Source of the DNA: a virus
Lineage: Duplodnaviria > Caudoviricetes
Reading direction: 5' to 3' (one strand)
Length of the DNA: 64,000 nucleotides
IMG/VR virus record: IMGVR_UViG_2974637922_000001
Location: 96,001 to 160,000 of that record
This document shows, in pieces, positions 1,805 through 42,300 of the stretch. The notes under the pieces are model-generated. The model was given only the letters and a program-made list of their open reading frames with translations, was not told where the DNA came from and searched no databases. How positions within the stretch are numbered: position 1 is the first letter of the stretch; the number at the start of each line of letters is the position of its first letter. The position numbers were made by a program, and so were the translations under genes.

Positions 1805-2455
1805 ATGAAACTAATTACAGAAGAAATTAACAAGGTTGAATTTATTGTCGAAGAAAACAATGGCAAACAGTCATGTTTTATTGAGGGAAACTTCCTTCAG
1901 GGCAATATTAAAAACCGAAATGGTCGTGTCTATAGAACCGAGACACTAGCCCGTGAAGTTGCCCGTTACAATGAACAGTATGTTCAGAACGGACGCGCTC
2001 TCGGTGAACTTGGGCATCCTGATGGACCCACAGTTAACTTGGACCGAGTATCACATAACATTATTTCACTTCGTCAAGAGGGAAATAATTTCATAGGTAA
2101 GGCAAAACTTCTTGATACTCCTATGGGAAATATCGCTAAGAGCCTTATTGGTGAAGGTGTTAAGCTTGGTGTTTCTTCTCGTGGTGTTGGTTCCATTAGT
2201 GAAACGAAGCAAGGATATAAGCTTGTTGGTGAAGACTTTATGTTGGCAACCGCAGCTGATATTGTAGCTGATCCTAGTGCCCCAGACGCTTTTGTTCAGG
2301 GTATCATGGAAGGAAAAGAGTGGGTTTTTGTTAATGGACTCTTGAGAGAGAGTGACATTAAGAGCACACAGTCTACAATTGACAAACTAGTTGTCACAAG
2401 GGAACTTGAAGAGAAGAAGGTTCAACTTTTTCAAGATTTCCTTTCAAATCTATAA
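1805..2455 (+). CDS. g21: Prohead protease gp21
   Basis: NRNGRVY, ALGELGHP, LGVSSRGVGS, DIVADPSAPDAFV. Confidence 0.97.
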   Translation: MKLITEEINKVEFIVEENNGKQSCFIEGNFLQGNIKNRNGRVYRTETLAREVARYNEQYVQNGRALGELGHPDGPTVNLDRVSHNIISLRQEGNNFIGKAKLLDTPMGNIAKSLIGEGVKLGVSSRGVGSISETKQGYKLVGEDFMLATAADIVADPSAPDAFVQGIMEGKEWVFVNGLLRESDIKSTQSTIDKLVVTRELEEKKVQLFQDFLSNL

Positions 2456-2524: not shown

Positions 2525-3628
2525 ATGGAAAACGTAGTAACGAAAGGTGCTAAGTCGGCTGAGGCTATGGATAAAGTCTCACCCAGCGTAGTACCCGGAC
2601 AGTCAATCACCGATCTCGGTGGTCCTACTCCCGAAAACTATACTAATGAGCCTGACGGCTCTGCGAAGCTTAATGACGCCGGTGGTCCCCTCAAGAAAGT
2701 TGAGGATGTGGTCACCAAAGGCGCTAAGAAGTCAGAAGGTATGGAAAAGGCATCCCCAGAACCACCATCTGGTGGAACAACTGATGCCCGATCCGCTTCT
2801 TCACAAGCTGAGAAAGTAACAACCAAACCCCCCGGTCAAACCACTAAGGAAGAGACTGAGGTAGAGGAAGAGGAAGTTCTTATTTCAGAAATTGATATTG
2901 AAGAAGACGTAACTGCACTTCTAAGTGGTGAGGAGCTCTCTGAAGAATTTCAGAGTAAGGCTCGTACCATCTTTGAAGCGGCCATCCGTAACAAGGTTGC
3001 TATCGCTAAAGAAGAACTCCAAGTAGCATACGAAACTCGCCTAGTTGAAGAACTAGAGCTAGTACGTGAGTCAGTCGCTAGTCGAGTTGACGCATACTTA
3101 GAGTACGTAGCCGATGAGTGGATGGCTGAAAACGCCATCGCCGTCGAACATGGACTAAGAACTGAAATGACAGAGAGCTTTATCTCTGGCATGAAGCAAC
3201 TATTTGACAGTCACTATGTTTCAATCCCTGAAGAGAGATTTGATGTAGTAGAGTCCATGGTTGAGAAACTTGATGAAATGGAAGAAAAACTCAATGAGCA
3301 AATTGAGCGTAACATCACCCTAAACAGCCGTTTAGGTCAAACTGTTGCTGAAGGTATCTTCATAGAAGTATCTGAAGGATTAGCTGAAACCCAAAAGGAT
3401 AAGCTTATCGCCCTTGCTGAAAACGTTGAGTTTGATAGTGAAGCAGGTTATCGTGAGAAACTAGAGAGTCTCAAGGAATCTTATTTCCCTGGTAGACCCT
3501 CAACTATCGCGAGCAGAAACAGTGTAGAGGACCTTACTGAAGAGGTTAACGTTGGTGGGGAAGCCCGTCAGGTTACCGGTTCAATGGCCGCCTACCTACA
3601 GACACTCGATAGAGTTTCTAAAAAGTGA
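2525..3628 (+). CDS. g22: Prohead scaffold gp22
   Basis: Acidic coiled coil with KARTIFEAA and YLEYVADEW; directly before g23. Confidence 0.93.
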   Translation: MENVVTKGAKSAEAMDKVSPSVVPGQSITDLGGPTPENYTNEPDGSAKLNDAGGPLKKVEDVVTKGAKKSEGMEKASPEPPSGGTTDARSASSQAEKVTTKPPGQTTKEETEVEEEEVLISEIDIEEDVTALLSGEELSEEFQSKARTIFEAAIRNKVAIAKEELQVAYETRLVEELELVRESVASRVDAYLEYVADEWMAENAIAVEHGLRTEMTESFISGMKQLFDSHYVSIPEERFDVVESMVEKLDEMEEKLNEQIERNITLNSRLGQTVAEGIFIEVSEGLAETQKDKLIALAENVEFDSEAGYREKLESLKESYFPGRPSTIASRNSVEDLTEEVNVGGEARQVTGSMAAYLQTLDRVSKK

Positions 3629-3681: not shown

Positions 3682-5085
3682 ATGTACAATTCCGCAAACT
3701 CCGAATTTCTCCAGGAGAAGTGGGCACCAATCCTCGAGCACGGTGAGTCCATCCAGGACGCACACAAGCGTGCCGTAACTGCCCAACTTCTAGAGAACCA
3801 GGAAGTAGCCCTTTCCGAAGAGCGTGCTTTCCTTTCAGAAGCTCCAACAGTAAACACCGACCCTAACGCAACTGGCAACGCTGGTTTCTCTGGTAATGGT
3901 GATCAATCAGTAGCTGGTTTCGATCCAGTACTCATCAGCCTCATCCGTCGTTCAATGCCTAACTTGATGGCATACGACCTTTGTGGTGTTCAACCAATGA
4001 ACGGTCCTACCGGTCTTATCTTCGCGATGAGAAGCCGTTATGACTCACAGACAGGCGACGAGACCTTCTACAACGAAGTCAACTCTGCCTTCTCCGCACA
4101 GAACCAGTCCGGTACAGCTACTCAGGGTAACTACTCTGGTCAAGTTGGCGCTGGTAACACAGTTGGTTTCGGTACAACCGCACAACGTGGTTCTAACCCT
4201 TCAATCCTCAACCCCGAGCCCGGTGACCAAGTTGGTTACAACGTAGGTCAGGGTATGTTGACCCAGGACGCTGAGAACCTTGGCGAAACTGGTACAGAGT
4301 TCAATGAGATGGGCTTCTCAATCGAGAAGGTCACCGTAACTGCTAAGTCACGGGCACTCAAGGCTCAGTACAGCATGGAATTGGCTCAGGATCTCAAAGC
4401 GATCCACGGTCTAAACGCCGAAGCTGAACTATCTAACATCCTCGCCTCTGAAATTCTTTCAGAGATCAACAGAGAAGTTGTTAGAACTATCTACAAGTCA
4501 GCTGTATTCGGTGCTCAGAACAACGTAGCCACTCCTGGTGTATTTGACCTAGACGTTGATTCCAACGGTAGATGGTCAGTTGAGAAGTTCAAAGGACTTA
4601 TCTTCCAGATCGAAAGAGACGCTAACGCGATCGCGCAACAAACTCGTAGAGGAAAGGGTAACTTCATCCTTTGTTCCGCGGATGTTGCTTCAGCTCTAAC
4701 CATGGCTGGTGTACTTGACTACACCCCAGCACTCAACGCTAACCTTAACGTTGATGACACCGGTAACACCTTCGCTGGTGTTCTACAAGGTAAGTATAGA
4801 GTCTACATTGACCCATACGCAGCTAACGTCAGCAACAACCAGTACTATGTCGCTGGTTACAAAGGTTCCTCACCTTATGACGCTGGTCTATTCTATTGTC
4901 CTTACGTTCCTCTCCAGATGGTTCGTTCAGTTGGACAGGACACCTTCCAGCCACGGATCGGATTTAAGACCCGCTACGGCATGGTCGCTAATCCTTTCGC
5001 TGAAGGTCTTGAGGCTGGATACGGACGTATCACCCCTAACTCCAACGTCTACTACAGACGCGTTCAAGTCAAAAATCTTATGTGA
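3682..5085 (+). CDS. g23: Major capsid protein gp23
   Basis: CGVQPMNGPTGLIFAMR, AKSRALKAQYSMELAQDLKAIHG, FQPRIGFKTRYG; maturation site AFLSE|A. Confidence 0.99.
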   Translation: MYNSANSEFLQEKWAPILEHGESIQDAHKRAVTAQLLENQEVALSEERAFLSEAPTVNTDPNATGNAGFSGNGDQSVAGFDPVLISLIRRSMPNLMAYDLCGVQPMNGPTGLIFAMRSRYDSQTGDETFYNEVNSAFSAQNQSGTATQGNYSGQVGAGNTVGFGTTAQRGSNPSILNPEPGDQVGYNVGQGMLTQDAENLGETGTEFNEMGFSIEKVTVTAKSRALKAQYSMELAQDLKAIHGLNAEAELSNILASEILSEINREVVRTIYKSAVFGAQNNVATPGVFDLDVDSNGRWSVEKFKGLIFQIERDANAIAQQTRRGKGNFILCSADVASALTMAGVLDYTPALNANLNVDDTGNTFAGVLQGKYRVYIDPYAANVSNNQYYVAGYKGSSPYDAGLFYCPYVPLQMVRSVGQDTFQPRIGFKTRYGMVANPFAEGLEAGYGRITPNSNVYYRRVQVKNLM

Positions 5086-5217: not shown

Positions 5218-5225
5218 TATAAATA
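5218..5225 (+). promoter_or_regulatory. Late promoter TATAAATA
   Basis: Exact consensus upstream of the OMP gene. Confidence 0.75.
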
Positions 5226-34590: not shown

Positions 34591-35038
34591 TCTAGAGCTA
34601 GAGTATCATCTTTATCTGGATGGAAACCCTATTCAGACACTGAAGGATGACGCTAGTACAATGACTTTAGCCAAGAAGAGAGTTATCGGTCCTTACATTC
34701 GTAGAGCTGAATCTTTTATTAAAATATCAGAACCATTTAGGGAACTACTTCGTCTTGATGATGGTAAGGATAAACTTCTAGATGCAATAGGTGTTGTCTG
34801 GGCACACTACTTTGAACATAAGATTAACAAGAAGTATATGGTTATCCCTAAGGATGCATCTCTTGATTTTATGGAATACTTTGGTACTATGGCACAGAAG
34901 GATAAGTTTCCAGATGATAAATATATTAAGAAAGCTCAGCGTATTATTCTCTCCCACGAAAAGAGTATTGACGCTTTCATTAAGGCTTTTCATAGTATCC
35001 GTTTAGCCAACGACAAATATCTCTCCCTGAAGAAATGA
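34583..35038 (+). CDS. Hypothetical protein
   Basis: Overlaps both MTase 1 and the 980-aa gene. Confidence 0.65.
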   Translation: MDDLELEYHLYLDGNPIQTLKDDASTMTLAKKRVIGPYIRRAESFIKISEPFRELLRLDDGKDKLLDAIGVVWAHYFEHKINKKYMVIPKDASLDFMEYFGTMAQKDKFPDDKYIKKAQRIILSHEKSIDAFIKAFHSIRLANDKYLSLKK

Positions 35039-37977
35039 TCACACCGAAGTCCCTACTATCATTCCTATCTGAAGCCGCTGATTCTGAGGCTGCACAACAG
35101 GCTAAGGAGATGGGTTTAACCTCTGCCGGTTATGGTAACTGGAGAGATAGGACGGGCAATGTTGTTGCCAAAACTGTAGATGGTCAGTTGGTAATGATTG
35201 ATGCCAAGGCAGATCCTATGGCTAGACCAGAGGCGCCTGAGAAGGAAATGCCACCTGAAGAGGAGGAGGAGCCTCAGTTTGTAGAACCAGATCCAGATAT
35301 GGTTGAGAAAGTAGCTAAGGGTCTTTCTGGTGGTAGATATGATATTGCATCAGCACAAAGGAAGAAAGAGTTACTGGCTTCTGCTAGACAGGTATTAATC
35401 AATAAACAGATCCAAGACGCTCAGATGCAGGCTGACGCTGAGGCTCAGGCAGCGGCACAAAACCCACCAGAACCCACTCCAGAGGAGTTGGCACAACAAC
35501 AGGCGGATATGGAACTACAGCAACAGAATGCTGTAATGGATACCGAACTGAAGGCACAGAGTGTTGAGAACGGGAAACTGGACCTTCAGATGAAGAAGGA
35601 CCAGATGAAGCAACAGAAGGAGGCAGAGAAAGAAGCCAAGGCTATGGATAAGTTAGCCAAGAAAGCAGAGGCACAGAAACAAGCAGAAGCCGACGCACAA
35701 GCTCAAGCTGAAGCGGAATCTAGTAATGTTGAGGCAGAACCAGAACCAAAAGCTCCAGCTGAGTTGGATCAATTATTATCGGATATTCGTAGTGGTGACG
35801 AGACCAAACTAGCAAAGTCTCTTCAGAAACTACAGAAGAAAGAAGGTCCTAAAAAGCCAAAACCAAAGGCACCAAAACTAGATATCGAACAGGTAAAGGC
35901 TCAAGCAGTAGAAGACGCTAAGCCTGGTGATCAACAGACTGCATACTTTGGTCCTCCTCCTGGAAATACAGGTGAGGAGATGAATAATGTAGTTAATCTT
36001 ATTGAACAAGTATCTACAACTAATAAGGGCACAGTTCCAAAGTATGCTCAGAAGATGCTCGATAAGTTCAATGACCCTGTTGCTAAGAAGCAGTTTGGTG
36101 AGTATTTGGAGTTTAGTGCTCAGGAAGAAGCTAGAATCGAAGAGAACTGGAAGAAACTATCCAAAGTTAAAAATATTGATGATGCGAAGAGATTACTTAC
36201 CGAAGGTATGGGTTTAATTGAAGGTCCAAAGGGACTGGAGTTTAGACCAGTATCACCTGGTATGCGTGAGTTCATGTCTATGGCGAAGAGTAATACTCAG
36301 AAAGGTTATCGTGGACTTCAGTATAGGGAAGTCGCCCACTTAGCAAACCCAGAAGTTCAGGAAAGAATTCTCAATACTGATAGACAGCAAGTTAACGCTG
36401 ATACTATTATTAACCCTGATGTAACTTGGGAGATGGCTACCGAACTTTATGACTCTATGTCTGGAAAGGTGAAGGGTGTATTTAACAAACTAGGAGGTGC
36501 TGACGCTATGCGTGAGGCTTTCGATCCCAAAGTTCCTGTAGTATATCTAAAAGATAGTTCTGGTAAGGCTACTGGACTTACTAATATTGATGTTATGGCA
36601 AATACTGATCCTGAGACATATAAAGAACAGTTTGCTAAAACAGGTGGCAGAAACCGAGGTATCTTTATCATGCAGAAGTTGATGGCTACTGGTGGTATGG
36701 ATCAACTCACAGGTCTTCCTAACTTCCTAACTCCTGAGAGTGGAACTATCGATCACCTAGAGGGTAGGTCACAGAAGATGGCGGACAAGTCCATCCGTAA
36801 GGACTCTCCTATCAATATGGCTATTGTTTCTAACTCAGTTAACTGGGCAAAGGCAGACGCTGCTGATCCTGAAACTGGAGCAAAGGATACTATTCCTGGT
36901 TTGGTTGCTCTAGGTCAATCTTACAGTGGAGGTATTAACCCAGCTGCCAAGAAAATCATAGAACAGGGTGGTGAAGAATCCATGAAACAAGCTTGGATGA
37001 CTCAGAGAATTTCGGGTATTGATATCAGAACACAGGCAGACGCCGAGAAGAAAGATACAGAACCTGATAGTCTTGATACTTTTATGGACGTACCTATGGG
37101 TAAATCCGGTGGTGTTGTTAATAGACTATCGGACGCTACTTCTTTTGGATATGATCTTCGTAATATGACTATGTATTACCCACGTGCGGATCATAAAAAT
37201 AAGTATGACCAAAACTCTTGGTCTGGTAACCCCAGAAAAGGTTCAAACCGAGGTTACTATGCAGTTCTAGACGGTTGGAGAAAGTCTGTTCTATCTGGTG
37301 CCATGTATGGTCCTGAGATTAGTAATTTGGTAGATAGTCATAGGGAAGAACTTACCAACGAAGTCCTCAAAAAGAGGGGAGATGAACCAAGACTAAGATC
37401 TGAAACTGAAGTTGATGAAGAACTCAGAAAGTTTAAGAAGAACTATGTTAAGTATCAGTACTCTATGCCTATGAGAGCCATTGCTTCTGCTTGGACAACT
37501 GGTATGATATCAAGACAGGATTATATCAAAGAGCTAAAGAGACTTAGTGATAAGGCTCTTGGTCAATTAGGTCCTGGTGGTGAGGTACATAGAGCTAGAT
37601 TGGTAAAGGAAAGGGACGAGTCTCTTAATCAATATCTATCTGAAATTGAAACTCATCAAGGTGTTGACGAACTATCTGAGGTTGACGAGGAGTGGTTGAT
37701 GGAGAATATTGGAAGCAATCCTGTTATGAATATGGCTTTATCTGAGTTTGGTAGAGGAGTTTTACGTAAGAAGTATCCAGCTGTTCTAGACGCGTTTGAC
37801 GCGGGTATTGCTGACGGCAGTGTTTCTTCAGGTAACTCTTTGACTGTTGGAAATAAAAAGAACGCTAAGAAACTTGTAGATCCGTCACAAGGGAAGTTCT
37901 TTGAGCACTTTGACTTGACAAACCAAGAAAACAGTGGTATGATGGATACGTTAAAGAGGTTGAGGAAAACCCGTTAA
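35035..37977 (+). CDS. 980-aa putative internal head protein with HNH-like domain
   Basis: SFLSE|A leader; shared GL..G.G.W.D..GN.VA.TV.G domain; coiled coil; GGMDQLTG..TIDH..N..N..K. Confidence 0.6.
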   Translation: MITPKSLLSFLSEAADSEAAQQAKEMGLTSAGYGNWRDRTGNVVAKTVDGQLVMIDAKADPMARPEAPEKEMPPEEEEEPQFVEPDPDMVEKVAKGLSGGRYDIASAQRKKELLASARQVLINKQIQDAQMQADAEAQAAAQNPPEPTPEELAQQQADMELQQQNAVMDTELKAQSVENGKLDLQMKKDQMKQQKEAEKEAKAMDKLAKKAEAQKQAEADAQAQAEAESSNVEAEPEPKAPAELDQLLSDIRSGDETKLAKSLQKLQKKEGPKKPKPKAPKLDIEQVKAQAVEDAKPGDQQTAYFGPPPGNTGEEMNNVVNLIEQVSTTNKGTVPKYAQKMLDKFNDPVAKKQFGEYLEFSAQEEARIEENWKKLSKVKNIDDAKRLLTEGMGLIEGPKGLEFRPVSPGMREFMSMAKSNTQKGYRGLQYREVAHLANPEVQERILNTDRQQVNADTIINPDVTWEMATELYDSMSGKVKGVFNKLGGADAMREAFDPKVPVVYLKDSSGKATGLTNIDVMANTDPETYKEQFAKTGGRNRGIFIMQKLMATGGMDQLTGLPNFLTPESGTIDHLEGRSQKMADKSIRKDSPINMAIVSNSVNWAKADAADPETGAKDTIPGLVALGQSYSGGINPAAKKIIEQGGEESMKQAWMTQRISGIDIRTQADAEKKDTEPDSLDTFMDVPMGKSGGVVNRLSDATSFGYDLRNMTMYYPRADHKNKYDQNSWSGNPRKGSNRGYYAVLDGWRKSVLSGAMYGPEISNLVDSHREELTNEVLKKRGDEPRLRSETEVDEELRKFKKNYVKYQYSMPMRAIASAWTTGMISRQDYIKELKRLSDKALGQLGPGGEVHRARLVKERDESLNQYLSEIETHQGVDELSEVDEEWLMENIGSNPVMNMALSEFGRGVLRKKYPAVLDAFDAGIADGSVSSGNSLTVGNKKNAKKLVDPSQGKFFEHFDLTNQENSGMMDTLKRLRKTR
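37915..37943 (+). promoter_or_regulatory. Sigma70 promoter for MTase 2 and the sigma factor
   Basis: TTGACA-17nt-TATGAT with extended TG. Confidence 0.75.
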
Positions 37978-38858
37978 TGGCAAAACCATTATTCAAATGG
38001 ACTGGGGGTAAGGGGCGACTCCTTCAAAAGTACACAGACCTAAACTTTTTCCCCGACTCTAGTCAGTTTGATACTTTCGTTGATTTGTTCTTTGGTGGGG
38101 GTGCTGTGACTATGTGGGTTGCTGAAAAGTATCCAGATAAGAAACTTATTATTAACGATCTCAATACTGAGATGATGAATCTGTATATTCAGATTCGAGA
38201 TAACTGGGAAGAATTCAGGGAACACTACCTGCGCATCAGTGGGGTGTTTATTGAAACCCCTCAGGATAAAAGGAAAGCTTTATATAATTGTTATAAGAAA
38301 CGATATGCCTGGAACTATAAGTGGTTGAGTGAAGCTGAGATAGCTGCTAACCTTTTGGTTATGTTAAAGACAAACTTTAACGGTATCTGGCAGGGATATA
38401 TTATGTACGGCGGTAGATACTCTACACCCCCTGGACATATCAATTACAAACCCACACTCTTTGATATCAATAAAGTAGAACAGTTCCGAGACGTTCTTTG
38501 TAGGTCTACAATATATAACCGTTCTTTTGAAGACGTACCTATCCCTGAGAACTCTTGGGTATTTGCTGATCCTCCATATCGTGACACCAAGAAGATGTAC
38601 TCCGACCAGTTCGACGATGAACTGCAGAGTAAATTAGCTAACTTTTTAACTTCCAATAGCTGCTTATATGCGGAGTCTAATAAGGAAACCGGTGACGGTT
38701 TTTGGCAGGCACATTATCCAGAAGAACACATTAAGTTTCTAGATCATAAGTATACCTGTGGTCACGGTGGTGCAGTAAACCCTGTAACTGAAGTTCTTAT
38801 AAAGAACTATGGGAATAATATCCCACAACCAACTACCCTTGATTCCTTTTTTAACTGA
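37977..38858 (+). CDS. Second D12-class N6-adenine DNA methyltransferase
   Basis: PLFKWTGGK, FVDLFFGGGA, INDLN, ADPPY. Confidence 0.9.
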   Translation: MAKPLFKWTGGKGRLLQKYTDLNFFPDSSQFDTFVDLFFGGGAVTMWVAEKYPDKKLIINDLNTEMMNLYIQIRDNWEEFREHYLRISGVFIETPQDKRKALYNCYKKRYAWNYKWLSEAEIAANLLVMLKTNFNGIWQGYIMYGGRYSTPPGHINYKPTLFDINKVEQFRDVLCRSTIYNRSFEDVPIPENSWVFADPPYRDTKKMYSDQFDDELQSKLANFLTSNSCLYAESNKETGDGFWQAHYPEEHIKFLDHKYTCGHGGAVNPVTEVLIKNYGNNIPQPTTLDSFFN

Positions 38859-38860
38859 TT

Positions 38861-39553
38861 ATGCAAAAGAAAAACCGTATCTCCCACGAAGAAGAAATCA
38901 AACTATGTCGCCAAGCACAACTACATGATCATACATCCAAGTATGCTATGACTAAAATGGTTAACGCTAATATTGGGTTGGTTGAAAAACTTGCCAACAA
39001 ACTCTACATCAAGAATGATCAATACTCTTTTGATGACCTATACCAAGAGGGTGTATTTGGTCTTATCAGAGGAGTGAATAAGTTTGATCCTAGTGTTGGG
39101 TGTAGGTTTTCCACATATTCATACTACTGGATCTATAGTTATATCATGAGGTATTGTGAGAATAACCTAGGTAAGATCCGTATTCCCACTCACCTCCGTG
39201 AGAAGATGAGGAAACAGAAAGATAATAAGGTAGAGTTGGACAGACTAAAGTCCAAAGTCCCGTCAGTAGTATCATTAAATACAATAGTGGGTGAATCACT
39301 ATCCTTGGATAATGTAGTTACATACACCGAGAATATCTCATTTGATGATGAGATGGAACATGTTTTGGTTGTTATGGATGAGGTTTTGGATGAAAGAGAA
39401 CACCAGGTTCTCTGTAGTAGGTTTGGTATTGGTGGCGAGAAGCCACTATCCCAGAGAGAGTGTGCTAAACTACACAATGTTACCCATGGTGCTATCTATT
39501 TGATTGAGAAGAAATCAATCAAGAAAATCAAACACCATATGGGGTATAAATAA
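38861..39553 (+). CDS. Sigma70-family sigma factor (regions 1.2-4)
   Basis: ANIGLV, DLYQEGVFGLIRGVNKFDP, RFSTYSYYWI, IRIP, C-terminal HTH. Confidence 0.9.
   Translation: MQKKNRISHEEEIKLCRQAQLHDHTSKYAMTKMVNANIGLVEKLANKLYIKNDQYSFDDLYQEGVFGLIRGVNKFDPSVGCRFSTYSYYWIYSYIMRYCENNLGKIRIPTHLREKMRKQKDNKVELDRLKSKVPSVVSLNTIVGESLSLDNVVTYTENISFDDEMEHVLVVMDEVLDEREHQVLCSRFGIGGEKPLSQRECAKLHNVTHGAIYLIEKKSIKKIKHHMGYK
39545..39552 (+). promoter_or_regulatory. Late promoter TATAAATA
   Basis: Exact consensus 17 nt before ATG 39570. Confidence 0.8.
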
Positions 39554-39569
39554 TACTATAGTAGATTCT

Positions 39570-40784
39570 ATGACGATGAGATCGTTTCTAACATTCCTAA
39601 CTGAGGCTCGTTCTCGTGCATCTAAAAGAGCCAAAGAGTTGGGACTCACTGGCAACGGTCATGGTGGATGGGAAGATAGCGAAGGTAACCTAGTCGCTAT
39701 GACTGTGAAGGGTGATCTGGAGTTTGTGAAGGGAAGAGAACCCAAAGAGGAAGAAGAACCCGATGAAAAGACTTCTGCCCCTGAAGAGGAACCAACATCC
39801 AACAAAGCGCCTGGGGTAGATCCAGAAAATACAGATACCCCACAACAGGAACAACCAGCACCTGTTCCCAAAGATAAAGGTATTCTAACTGTTGCTTTCG
39901 GTAGGTTTAACCCTCCTACTATTGGGCATGAGAAGTTAATTAATACGGTAGCATCATATTCCGAGGATGGAGATTATATTATTGTTCCTTCCCGTAGTGA
40001 AGATAAGAAGAAGAATCCTCTAGATGTTGATACAAAAGTCAGCATCATGAGGCAGATGTATCCACAACATGCCGAGAAGATTGTTAACGATCCACATAAC
40101 AGAACCATCTTTGATGTTATGCGTAAGGCGCATAATGATGGTTACGCTGGTATTAGGATTGTTGGTGGTGGAGATAGAGTTAAGGAATATGAGAAGTTAG
40201 CCAACGCATATAACGGATCTACCTATCAGTTTGATGAAATTGATATAGTAAACGCTGGTGACAGGGATCCAGATGCGGAAGGTGCGGAAGGTATGTCTGC
40301 CTCCAAGATGAGAAAGGCGGCAGCTGATAATGACTTTGCTTCTTTTAGAAAGGGAATGCCAAAGACTCTCAGTAACGACCAGATGGTTTCTATCTACACT
40401 CAGGTTCAGAAGTCTATGGGTGTAACACCTAAGGAAGCTGTAATTGAAAACTGGAAAGTTGCTCCTAGACTGTATCCACAGGAACTGAGAGAGGCTTATA
40501 TCCAAAACGAAATCTATAATATTGGTGATACTGTCAGTCATGACACCACTGGTATGGTAGGTAAGATCGTAAGAAAGGGAACCAATCACCTCATTTGTGT
40601 AACAGAAAGTGAAGAGATGTTTAAGACCTGGACACAGGATGTGAGTCCTGCCGACCTAAAACCACAACCAGCAATCTCTACTCCAAAGGAGAGGGAAGTT
40701 GGAACAGATTCCCTCAGATCTTTCCTTCAGAGAATCACTCCAGGGGAGAAAGAGCAATCCTTTATAAATAAACATAAGAAATAA
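39570..40784 (+). CDS. Cytidyltransferase-like nucleotidyltransferase, probable virion protein
   Basis: FGRFNPPTIGH, KNPL, GMSASKMR; FLTE|A leader. Confidence 0.85.
   Translation: MTMRSFLTFLTEARSRASKRAKELGLTGNGHGGWEDSEGNLVAMTVKGDLEFVKGREPKEEEEPDEKTSAPEEEPTSNKAPGVDPENTDTPQQEQPAPVPKDKGILTVAFGRFNPPTIGHEKLINTVASYSEDGDYIIVPSRSEDKKKNPLDVDTKVSIMRQMYPQHAEKIVNDPHNRTIFDVMRKAHNDGYAGIRIVGGGDRVKEYEKLANAYNGSTYQFDEIDIVNAGDRDPDAEGAEGMSASKMRKAAADNDFASFRKGMPKTLSNDQMVSIYTQVQKSMGVTPKEAVIENWKVAPRLYPQELREAYIQNEIYNIGDTVSHDTTGMVGKIVRKGTNHLICVTESEEMFKTWTQDVSPADLKPQPAISTPKEREVGTDSLRSFLQRITPGEKEQSFINKHKK
40763..40770 (+). promoter_or_regulatory. Late promoter TATAAATA
   Basis: Exact consensus upstream of 40804. Confidence 0.75.
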
Positions 40785-40803: not shown

Positions 40804-42300
40804 ATGGATTTCAACGTAACCGAAGCTGTCGAGCTAATCGTATTGTTAGCCGAGACAGAACAGCTAACACTACAAGATGCTCTACAGGAGTTCCTATCAG
40901 AGACCGAATTGGACTCTGAAACGGCATCCCATCTAAAGGGTGCCCTCTTTGAGAAATATTCACTCAGGGAGATGGCTACTGACGCCGTAACAAACGCTAT
41001 GATGAAAGTGTTTGTTAGTCGTCCAGTAGTAGAAGAGGAAGTGGAGACTCCTGATGGTAATCTCTATTTTGTAGAGGTTGAACTAGAGGAGGAAGTTCTA
41101 GAAGGTTATCTAACCCTAGAAGAAATCCAGAATATGAGAGTGGATGCTGATGTTCTATCCGTTAAGTTAGTTGATGAAGGTGTTCGTGACACTGACGCCG
41201 AGAAAGGAACAGAGGAAAGAAAGAAACGCCTTGAGAAGAAGCGTGGAATGAAGTTGGACGACCATCCTCAGTATCTGGAAACAGATATGAAGAAGCGTCA
41301 GGAGAATAACGAGAAGGCTCGTAAGGATATGGATAAAGTGAAGGGTCAGAAGAACCCCCACTTCGAAGAGTATGATATTTCTGAAGGTCGCAAAGAAGGT
41401 GAGTCTTCTAAAGATTACGCCGATAGAATGACTAAGAAGTATTCTGGTGGTAAGTCTAAGTCCTATGATCCCATGAAGGATAAGAACTTCGACCATGACA
41501 AGGCAGAAAGAACCCGTGGTTCTATGGAAGAAGGTCTAGACGCCGTAGGTGGCGAAGACGCTGACATTAATAACGATAATAAGGTTGATAAGACTGATAA
41601 GTATCTACACAATCGTCGTAAGGCTATCGGAAAGGCGATGAAGAAGGAATCAGCTTGGGCTGAGTATCTAAATCGTAGAGGAATCTCTGAGGAAGTATTC
41701 TCTGAAGGTGACCTAATTGATGCAGGTCGTAAGAATGAGGGAGAAAGAAGGGGAAAAAAGATTACCGGGGAGGGTGTTGATAACTCCTCCTCTGTGAAGT
41801 TGATGCCTCGTATCGCTGAAGCTGCTATTATCACTGAGAAGTCAGAGAGTAAGTCACAACAGCGTCTCTTTGGTATGGTAAGAGCAGCTCAGAAGGGTGA
41901 GAAACCCGCCTCTGGTAAGGTTGCTGAACTAGCTTCTAAGGTTGGTAAGAAAGACGTTCTAGACTTCGCTAAGACAAAACACAAGGGTTTGAAAGAGAAC
42001 TGTTGTGATAAGTGTGGCACTCCTGATTGTACTTGTGATGAGAAGCCCAAGGCTAAGAAAAAGAAAGCTAAACTAGATGAAGCAGGGATGCCTATTCTAG
42101 AGTATTCTAGAAACAACGCTGAAGGTCCTACACCTGAAATGATTGATCCTCCAAAGGATGAAGAAGGTAAGAAGGGTGTAAAGAACCCTAAAGGTAAGGC
42201 TAAGAGACCTGGTGCAGGTGACAGAAGACCTAACGACGGTGGTTCCGAACTACCATTCGATATGGGAACCGTACCTGGTGGCGGCGGTTGTGGTTGCTAA
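40804..42300 (+). CDS. Charged modular late protein, probable internal head protein
   Basis: Many hydrophobic-x-E junctions; DINNDNKVD module; KSESKSQQRLFGMV module. Confidence 0.65.
   Translation: MDFNVTEAVELIVLLAETEQLTLQDALQEFLSETELDSETASHLKGALFEKYSLREMATDAVTNAMMKVFVSRPVVEEEVETPDGNLYFVEVELEEEVLEGYLTLEEIQNMRVDADVLSVKLVDEGVRDTDAEKGTEERKKRLEKKRGMKLDDHPQYLETDMKKRQENNEKARKDMDKVKGQKNPHFEEYDISEGRKEGESSKDYADRMTKKYSGGKSKSYDPMKDKNFDHDKAERTRGSMEEGLDAVGGEDADINNDNKVDKTDKYLHNRRKAIGKAMKKESAWAEYLNRRGISEEVFSEGDLIDAGRKNEGERRGKKITGEGVDNSSSVKLMPRIAEAAIITEKSESKSQQRLFGMVRAAQKGEKPASGKVAELASKVGKKDVLDFAKTKHKGLKENCCDKCGTPDCTCDEKPKAKKKKAKLDEAGMPILEYSRNNAEGPTPEMIDPPKDEEGKKGVKNPKGKAKRPGAGDRRPNDGGSELPFDMGTVPGGGGCGC

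Follow-up and report, generated by a model that had tools for sequence, protein, structure and literature searches.

A putative two-part N-terminal address, with a leader resembling the T4 capsid-targeting sequence, on two otherwise unrelated proteins of a T4-like cyanophage

Why should two proteins that differ over most of their length begin in the same way? The question is raised by two genes, here named A and B, in a 64,000-nucleotide (nt) stretch of viral DNA (positions 96,001 to 160,000 of IMG/VR record IMGVR_UViG_2974637922_000001; the whole stretch is hereafter called the window). The source genome belongs to a T4-like cyanomyovirus near Synechococcus phage ACG-2014f (Atlauavirus, Kyanoviridae), with 86-90% megablast identity in the region, and the order of genes around A and B matches that of ACG-2014f isolate Syn7803US34. 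BLASTP of protein A (980 amino acids, aa) against protein B (open reading frame (ORF) 39570-40784) returned a single significant alignment, between residues 2-103 of A and 1-114 of B (115 columns, 36% identity, E 1e-13), with 26 identical positions in its first 58 columns and no alignment over the remainder of both proteins. An earlier sequence-only reading of the window had described a shared N-terminal module of about 55 residues, followed in both proteins by acidic and proline-rich linkers, and was correct about the alignment, its positions and the linkers, which are apparent in both sequences. A tblastn search with the first 60 residues of A identified two copies of the module in the whole 196,842-base genome, those of A and B. 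Judged by its sequence, the module is composed of two units, a short leader and a separate domain of about 40 residues. We consider it probable that these units form a two-part N-terminal address, consisting of a T4-type capsid-targeting leader and a small domain, on proteins that are packaged in the head and enter the cell together with the DNA. The two genes and their N-terminal parts are as follows:

35035..37977, + strand: gene A, encoding 980 aa with leader, small domain, linker/coiled coil and large cargo (ORF; phrog_3561; no Pfam match)
35035..35073, + strand: leader of A, residues 1-13, ending F-L-S-E, with a predicted cut before Ala14 (compared with T4 IPII/IPIII)
35074..35205, + strand: domain of A, residues 14-57, helix and three strands, S-A-G-Y-G-x-W-R-D subtype (profile alignment)
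35206..35901, + strand: residues 58-289 of A, acidic/proline linker and Q/A/E/K-rich region (sequence)
39576..40784, + strand: gene B, cytidylyltransferase-like, 402 aa from the family-consistent start or 404 aa from the alternative ATG at 39570 (PF01467; phrog_395 'cytidyltransferase')
39576..39605, + strand: leader of B, residues 1-10, M-R-S-F-L-T-F-L-T-E, with a predicted cut before Ala11 (compared with T4 IPII/IPIII)
39606..39731, + strand: domain of B, residues 11-52, helix and three strands (AlphaFold predicted local distance difference test (pLDDT) 77-90; family alignments)
39732..39869, + strand: residues 53-98 of B, acidic/proline-rich disordered linker (AlphaFold pLDDT <50 for residues 53-90)

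More than 8,000 protein clusters resemble B, and their N-termini are strikingly uniform, with the cyanophage leader consensus M-K-S-F-x-x-F-L-x-E and a following Ala or Ser, then a block containing the motifs G-L, D-G-H-G-G-W-Y-D and G-E-F-V-A-K-T, and finally a low-complexity linker that varies in length. Among 22 diverse family sequences, M1 and F7 do not vary, and F4 and E10 are at least 90% conserved; in a set of 83 sequences M1, F7 and E10 are invariant. The T4 internal proteins IPII and IPIII, translated from ipII and ipIII of the T4 record, start with M-K-T-Y-Q-E-F-I-A-E and continue with Ala; protein A starts with four residues, then K-S-L-L-S-F-L-S-E and Ala. In T4, residues 4 and 7 are the main determinants of targeting, and residues 8 and 10 those of processing (PMC9026906, a review of the mutational work of Mullaney and Black). 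All four functional positions are matched by the leaders of A and B, with Phe4 and Phe7 at the targeting positions of B, Leu and Phe at their equivalents in A, and a processing site that reads L-T-E then Ala in B and L-S-E then Ala in A. Counted up to the conserved Glu, the leaders are 10 (B) and 13 (A) residues long, within the range of about 10-19 residues of T4-type capsid-targeting sequences (CTSs).

A gp21-type protease and a gp22 scaffold, which are expected alongside a T4-type CTS, are encoded in the same phage, and the window opens with the head genes gp21, gp22 and gp23:

1805..2455, + strand: gp21-type prohead protease, the predicted remover of the leaders (PF03420 E 4e-34; phrog_207)
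2525..3628, + strand: gp22-type head scaffolding protein, on which the leaders are predicted to dock (phrog_237 E 1.6e-121)
3682-5085: gp23 major head protein
3829..3843, + strand: residues 50-54 of gp23, F-L-S-E then Ala, the sole (L/I)-x-E-small site in gp23 residues 1-100

The five residues F-L-S-E-Ala of gp23 are identical to those of the A leader, and removal of the gp23 N-terminal propeptide by gp21 at such a site is established in T4 head maturation (PMC5694885). No peptide-level evidence of leader cleavage was found in the supplements of the paper on the virion proteome of phage S-CREM2 (PMC10665884).

Relatives of both proteins have been detected in phage particles. The core 'citidylyltransferase' T4-GC190 was found in purified virions of S-SM1 (PMC3037559, Sullivan et al.), and SSM1_190, which is labelled GC190, has both leader and domain at its N-terminus. 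Orthologues of B were also detected in the virions of S-SZBM1 (PMC9146016), S-CREM2 (PMC10665884) and, under the name NMNAT, S-SCSM1 (PMC9602691), where the NMNAT gene overlies a tblastn match to the module. Authors of the proteome papers themselves note the repeated detection of the transferase, and the searchable text of these papers mentions no targeting leader or entry route for virion enzymes. Among the proteins related to the cargo of A, S-CREM2 gp12 yielded 28 unique peptides from virions (PMC10665884). Leader and domain are furthermore present on the kinase-like gp14 and the gp12-type protein of S-CREM2 and S-H34, and the kinase gp14 of S-CREM2 is likewise virion-detected (PMC10665884).

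S-CREM2 also encodes proteins in which the two units are separated. Its gp13 and its SAM hydrolase gp6 carry the leader without the domain, and its transferase gp154, a member of the virion proteome, has the leader but lacks the 40-residue domain. A strict pattern for the leader, with its Met at a start codon (M-[KR]-x-[FLY]-x-x-[FL]-[LIFM]-x-E), was fixed beforehand from the transferase family and scanned against the whole S-CREM2 genome in six frames and at every possible start. It matched four times, at gp154, gp14, gp6 and gp13, all of them annotated gene starts. The published virion proteome comprises 52 of the 221 ORFs, and these include all four genes. Detection in virions goes together with the leader and does not depend on the domain. 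Since the S-CREM2 transferase and SAM hydrolase lack the domain yet occur in virions, the packaging signal is most likely confined to the short leader. In the source genome of the window, B fits the strict pattern, A fits an offset form in which as many as six additional residues may follow Met, and no other match to either was found. The proposal of the sequence-only reading that the whole stretch is a portable tag on virion-carried enzymes therefore holds in part: the occurrence in virions of relatives of B and of the A cargo, the match to T4 positions and the S-CREM2 pattern test support its core well, if indirectly, but the 55 residues are two units, of which only the leader is likely to direct packaging.

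The sequence upstream of B contains a further feature suggestive of late expression:

39545..39552, + strand: TATAAATA, T4-type late-promoter consensus, 24 bases before the B start at 39576 and 18 before the ATG at 39570

This consensus occurs at 2460, 5218, 39545, 40763 and 42713 in the window, always on the + strand. Four of the matches lie 18-65 bases ahead of gene starts, namely those of gp22, B, a 498-aa gene that follows B (41 bases upstream) and ORF 42756; the match at 5218 lies 68 bases ahead of ORF 5286.

On the strength of relatives and sequence, packaging, cleavage and ejection in this phage would most likely proceed as in T4. The short, amphipathic leader (residues 1-13 of A, 1-10 of B) would dock the precursor on the gp22 scaffolding core during prohead building, and the gp21 prohead protease would then cut after the Glu of F-L-(S/T)-E, before Ala. 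In T4, replacement of the leader Glu by Asp stops processing while leaving targeting intact. With the leader gone, the mature protein in the head would start with the domain of about 40 residues, connected by the disordered acidic/proline linker to an exchangeable enzyme, which is NMNAT/PPAT-like in B and a large domain with an HNH-like motif in A. Mature A and B would sit in the capsid beside the DNA and pass into the cell upon infection, as the internal proteins of T4, along with Alt, do.

AlphaFold models of the domain (pLDDT 77-90) consist of a helix followed by three short strands. The copies in A and B are 45% identical and belong to different subtypes, and therefore do not stem from a recent duplication; the copy in A is 57-61% identical to a subtype that occurs in certain transferases and in phage X1, and as the first copy of gp12-type proteins. 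The sequence-only reading had suggested a profile of the module and a listing of the domains fused to it. An alignment of the two copies alone gave a single related locus, and word-indexed protein searches with the short module gave near-identical proteins only. We built such a profile from 22 modules and searched it exhaustively against 1.84 billion representative proteins, which yielded 762 proteins at E <=1e-3 and 308 at E <=1e-10. Besides transferases and many fragments, these include long proteins with two or three copies of the domain, in which the N-terminal copy carries the leader and the internal copies begin at profile position 10-16, hence without it. Other domains on these proteins include NUDIX and kinase/APH-like ones, and most of the proteins show no further domain in Pfam. 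A 175-aa protein of Xanthomonas phage X1 has leader and domain as well. In total, the module occurs on at least four cargo classes across different phage lineages. In the present genome, the 'set' of effectors proposed in the sequence-only reading comprises only two proteins.

With the B module, tblastn matched 202 phage records, nearly all cyanomyoviruses, beneath genes annotated as cytidyltransferase, and among these records only those of ACG-2014f have two places with the module. Clear matches in a viral structure library were all cyanophage or unnamed viral proteins, including transferases, ACG-2014f proteins of 418, 796 and 892 aa, a 1,021-aa S-RIM2 protein, an S-H34 kinase and an S-N03 gp12-type protein; an ADP-ribosyltransferase and an AAA protein from uncultured phages matched weakly. 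No convincing fold match was found among about 48,000 PDB representatives (best Z 3.4, which is noise level), and no Pfam or NCBIfam family covers the domain, the module alone giving only unrelated sub-threshold Pfam matches. In 185,579 prokaryote genomes the domain was matched seven times, always on contigs of metagenome-assembled genomes 1.6 to 49 kb in length. These seven contigs are labelled Flavobacteriales, Methanobacteriota, Pelagibacterales and Gammaproteobacteria, and are probably phage DNA binned into the wrong genomes. In the metagenomic proteins P0203, P0148 and P0253, a kinase-type N-terminal module is joined to a gp12-type part via an internal leader-like F-x-x-F-L-T-E and a domain. 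They may be gene fusions, or else polyproteins that the prohead protease would cleave within the head.

Several points weigh against a T4-type address on A and B. The leader of A is offset by three residues and has Leu, which is not aromatic, at the equivalent of position 4, and the match to T4 is a motif of 10 residues that does not lend itself to scoring as homology. Nor would a leader that is sufficient by itself explain the conservation of the 40-residue domain. The enrichment of the strict pattern in the S-CREM2 virion proteome (hypergeometric p ~0.003) rests on four genes, three of which lie in one gene block and are thus not fully independent. The five matches to TATAAATA do not significantly exceed the chance mean of 3.7, so that only their positions are suggestive, and A is preceded by no clear copy of the late promoter but only by G-ATAAATA about 112 bases upstream. 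Finally, all virion detections come from relatives rather than from this phage or ACG-2014f, and the authors of two of the proteome papers caution that abundant soluble proteins may persist through CsCl purification (PMC10665884, PMC9602691).

This possible contamination is also what would be expected if the module acted in the cytoplasm, as an interaction or binding domain that gathers enzymes at one partner in the infected cell, be it a host or phage protein or nucleic acid, and if the virion detections were carry-over. Such a role would suit a domain that is well conserved, folds on its own in the models and is repeated internally without a leader better than would a disposable tag. It would also agree with the position of A and B within a replication and nucleotide-metabolism block, with mazG and 2-oxoglutarate oxygenases on one side and gp61 and nrdA on the other. 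However, a cytoplasmic function does not account for a leader that fits both the targeting and processing positions of T4 and the gp23 site of this phage, for the detection of the transferase in four independent proteomes, for the presence in virions of all four strict-leader genes of S-CREM2 and of leader-only proteins, or for the late-promoter consensus ahead of B. We therefore regard it as an unlikely explanation, and favour the two-part packaging address.

If the leader is removed in the head, the domain might be an adaptor that is retained on the mature cargo and acts inside the head or just after ejection, a role to which we attach low confidence. A more specific and likewise tentative idea is that the domain provides a second address after leader removal, for example by setting the order of ejection or by anchoring the enzymes somewhere in the cell that has just been infected, and that leader and domain together define a family of polymorphic, swappable injected effectors spread over T4-like cyanophages as well as certain other myoviruses of water and soil. 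If this were true, the cargo classes of such effectors would so far comprise a nucleotidyltransferase, a kinase, a NUDIX protein and an HNH-like protein.

The C-terminal part of A provides evidence for exchange of cargo behind a constant N-terminus. Its features are:

35902..37974, + strand: residues 290-980 of A, exchangeable cargo domain (relatives in S-H34, S-N03 and MA10-type phage proteins with 62% identity, and S-CREM2 gp12 with 27%, E 1e-53)
36751..36852, + strand: residues 573-606 of A, HNH-like D-H...N...N-x-x-K motif (His invariant, Asn/Lys conserved in relatives)

In blastn comparisons with ACG-2014f US34, A shows 98% nt identity up to position 35704 (A residue 223), where the breakpoint falls in a low-complexity region. 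No similarity to US34 was detected from 35705 to 37976, and 92% identity resumes at 37977, exactly at the start of the Dam gene. At the swapped segment, US34 has a different C-terminal part and an extra 301-aa gene. Six database proteins similarly share A-like first 180-310 residues (52-85% identity) and have C-termini without detectable similarity to A. On these alignments, the cargo of A is evidently exchangeable between near-identical isolates. GenBank and UniProt list the 892-aa sister of A, ACG-2014f Syn7803US34_184 (L001 8001-10679), as a 'cytitidyltransferase', but at E <=0.01 it matches no Pfam family, PF01467 included, and its name seems to stem only from the shared N-terminal module.

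Such cassette exchange lends some plausibility to the view that the shared N-terminus of A and B is a chimeric gene start, a functionless by-product of recombination between neighbouring genes. However, the moderate identity and differing subtypes of the two domain copies argue against recent copying, and the module is conserved in the 762 representative proteins found at E <=1e-3 and is attached to four or more classes of cargo in distinct phage lineages, a Xanthomonas phage among them. Conservation thus largely refutes this explanation, which we hold to be very improbable. An export or membrane-targeting signal, for which the N-terminal position, shortness and partial hydrophobicity of the leader could be cited, is the least credible alternative, as the leader lacks a hydrophobic core of signal-peptide length, has an invariant Glu at position 10 and a predicted amphipathic helix, and precedes enzymes that handle nucleotides or nucleic acids; a signal-peptide reading was rejected on composition.

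The sequence-only reading had described the cargo of A as HNH-like, which is no more than plausible, on account of the motif with its invariant His and of weak links from the ESM Atlas to HNH families (score 0.84, template modelling (TM) score ~0.5 by target only). The S-CREM2 authors reported an HHpred match of gp12 to Cas9 with 92% probability and an E value of 0.2 (PMC10665884). On the other hand, A has no Pfam match at E <=10, no NCBIfam match and no PDB sequence match, and a profile of its HNH-like region gave no match in PDB. As no HNH profile match was found, the term remains a lead.

The assignment of B as a HIGH-type nucleotidyltransferase is more secure. Downstream of the linker, B contains two further domains:

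39870..40445, + strand: residues 99-290 of B, HIGH-type nucleotidyltransferase domain, PPAT/NMNAT-like (PF01467; Foldseek; NCBIfam leads)
40473..40649, + strand: residues 300-358 of B, small all-beta (SH3-like) C-terminal domain, also in other phage proteins (phrog_4808/22379; strands in model)

B matches PF01467 with 28.6 bits (cut-off 21, E 1.9e-6) and has a T-I-G-H motif of the (H/T)-x-G-H type. The top Foldseek matches are PPAT and NMNAT structures with probability 1.0, including PPAT 1o6b (E 1e-5, TM 0.68 by target). Profile, motif and modelled fold agree with the earlier assignment, and B is an NMNAT/PPAT-like HIGH nucleotidyltransferase. Its SH3-like domain has matches to PHROGs that bear the name ribonucleotide reductase alpha (phrog_4808), which is probably why module-bearing proteins of S-MbCM25, S-MbCM6 and metaG-MbCM1 carry NrdA/NrdB labels. 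The conserved C-terminal tail helix of the transferase family (S-L-R-S-F-L-Q-R..., residues 378-387 of B, 40707-40736) resembles the N-terminal leader.

Among known systems, the closest parallel to the leaders of A and B is the CTS of T4 IPI, IPII, IPIII and Alt, which likewise stands at the N-terminus, is about ten residues long and has hydrophobic or aromatic side chains at positions 4 and 7, (I/L)-x-E at 8-10 and a following Ala (PMC9026906, PMC3012670). The T4 system uses the same gp21/gp22/gp23 head machinery as this phage and combines a constant leader with diverse, exchangeable cargo, as is also seen at the T4 internal-protein loci (PMC3012670). Unlike T4 internal proteins, to which their mature parts have no sequence relation, A and B are large enzymes (43-110 kDa), and many proteins of the family have the extra domain of about 40 residues after the leader, which is absent in T4; targeting and cleavage are here predictions. 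B is a member of the core 'cytidylyltransferase' family of T4-like cyanophages (T4-GC190, Sullivan et al. 2010; PHROG 395; NMNAT in S-SCSM1), with 50-95% identity to hundreds of proteins, and does not differ from them in leader, domain, linker, nucleotidyltransferase, SH3-like domain or tail. The cargo of A is related to gp12 of the S-CREM2 virion gene block gp15-gp12 and gp6 (kinase, 'Cas9-like', SAM hydrolase; PMC10665884), of which gp12, gp13, gp14 and gp6 are all in the virion proteome. In contrast to gp12 relatives, which often have two copies of the domain, A has one, of a different subtype, and in contrast to S-CREM2 the source genome lacks a kinase with the module. The long propeptides of ejection proteins of the giant phages SPN3US and phiKZ also lie at the N-terminus, steer proteins into the prohead and are cleaved off at x-x-E sites by a T4-type prohead protease (PMC5694885). 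These propeptides have 80-275 residues and are removed whole, whereas in A and B the predicted cut falls after only about ten residues and would leave the domain in place.

T4-like cyanophages kill a large share of ocean picocyanobacteria. Proteomic studies repeatedly find the 'cytidylyltransferase', kinases and other enzymes in cyanophage particles without saying how they enter or whether they are contaminants, and a shared T4-type loading leader would offer a simple and testable mechanism. It would also provide a sequence rule for predicting which enzymes a cyanophage brings into the cell before any gene expression. Taken together, the extra domain and the exchange of cargo between near-identical isolates hint at an arms-race locus comparable to the genes for the internal proteins of T4, which indicates where counter-defence functions may lie. 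The virion association of the transferase and of kinases was already published; the separable 40-residue domain across several cargo classes, the leader test on a published proteome and the cargo swap between near-identical isolates are added here.

Directly after B lies the 498-aa gene mentioned above (Syn9 'gp186' type, 40804-42300), pieced together from short modules whose matches spread over many PHROGs. S-SZBM1_139, a protein of 457 aa that is numbered beside the S-SZBM1 transferase, is present in the S-SZBM1 virion proteome and may be a homologue of the 498-aa product. A relative of the 498-aa gene in phage RN05-S is annotated as 'virion protein', and the S-SM1 transferase has the same 498-aa-type neighbour behind it (SSM1_191).

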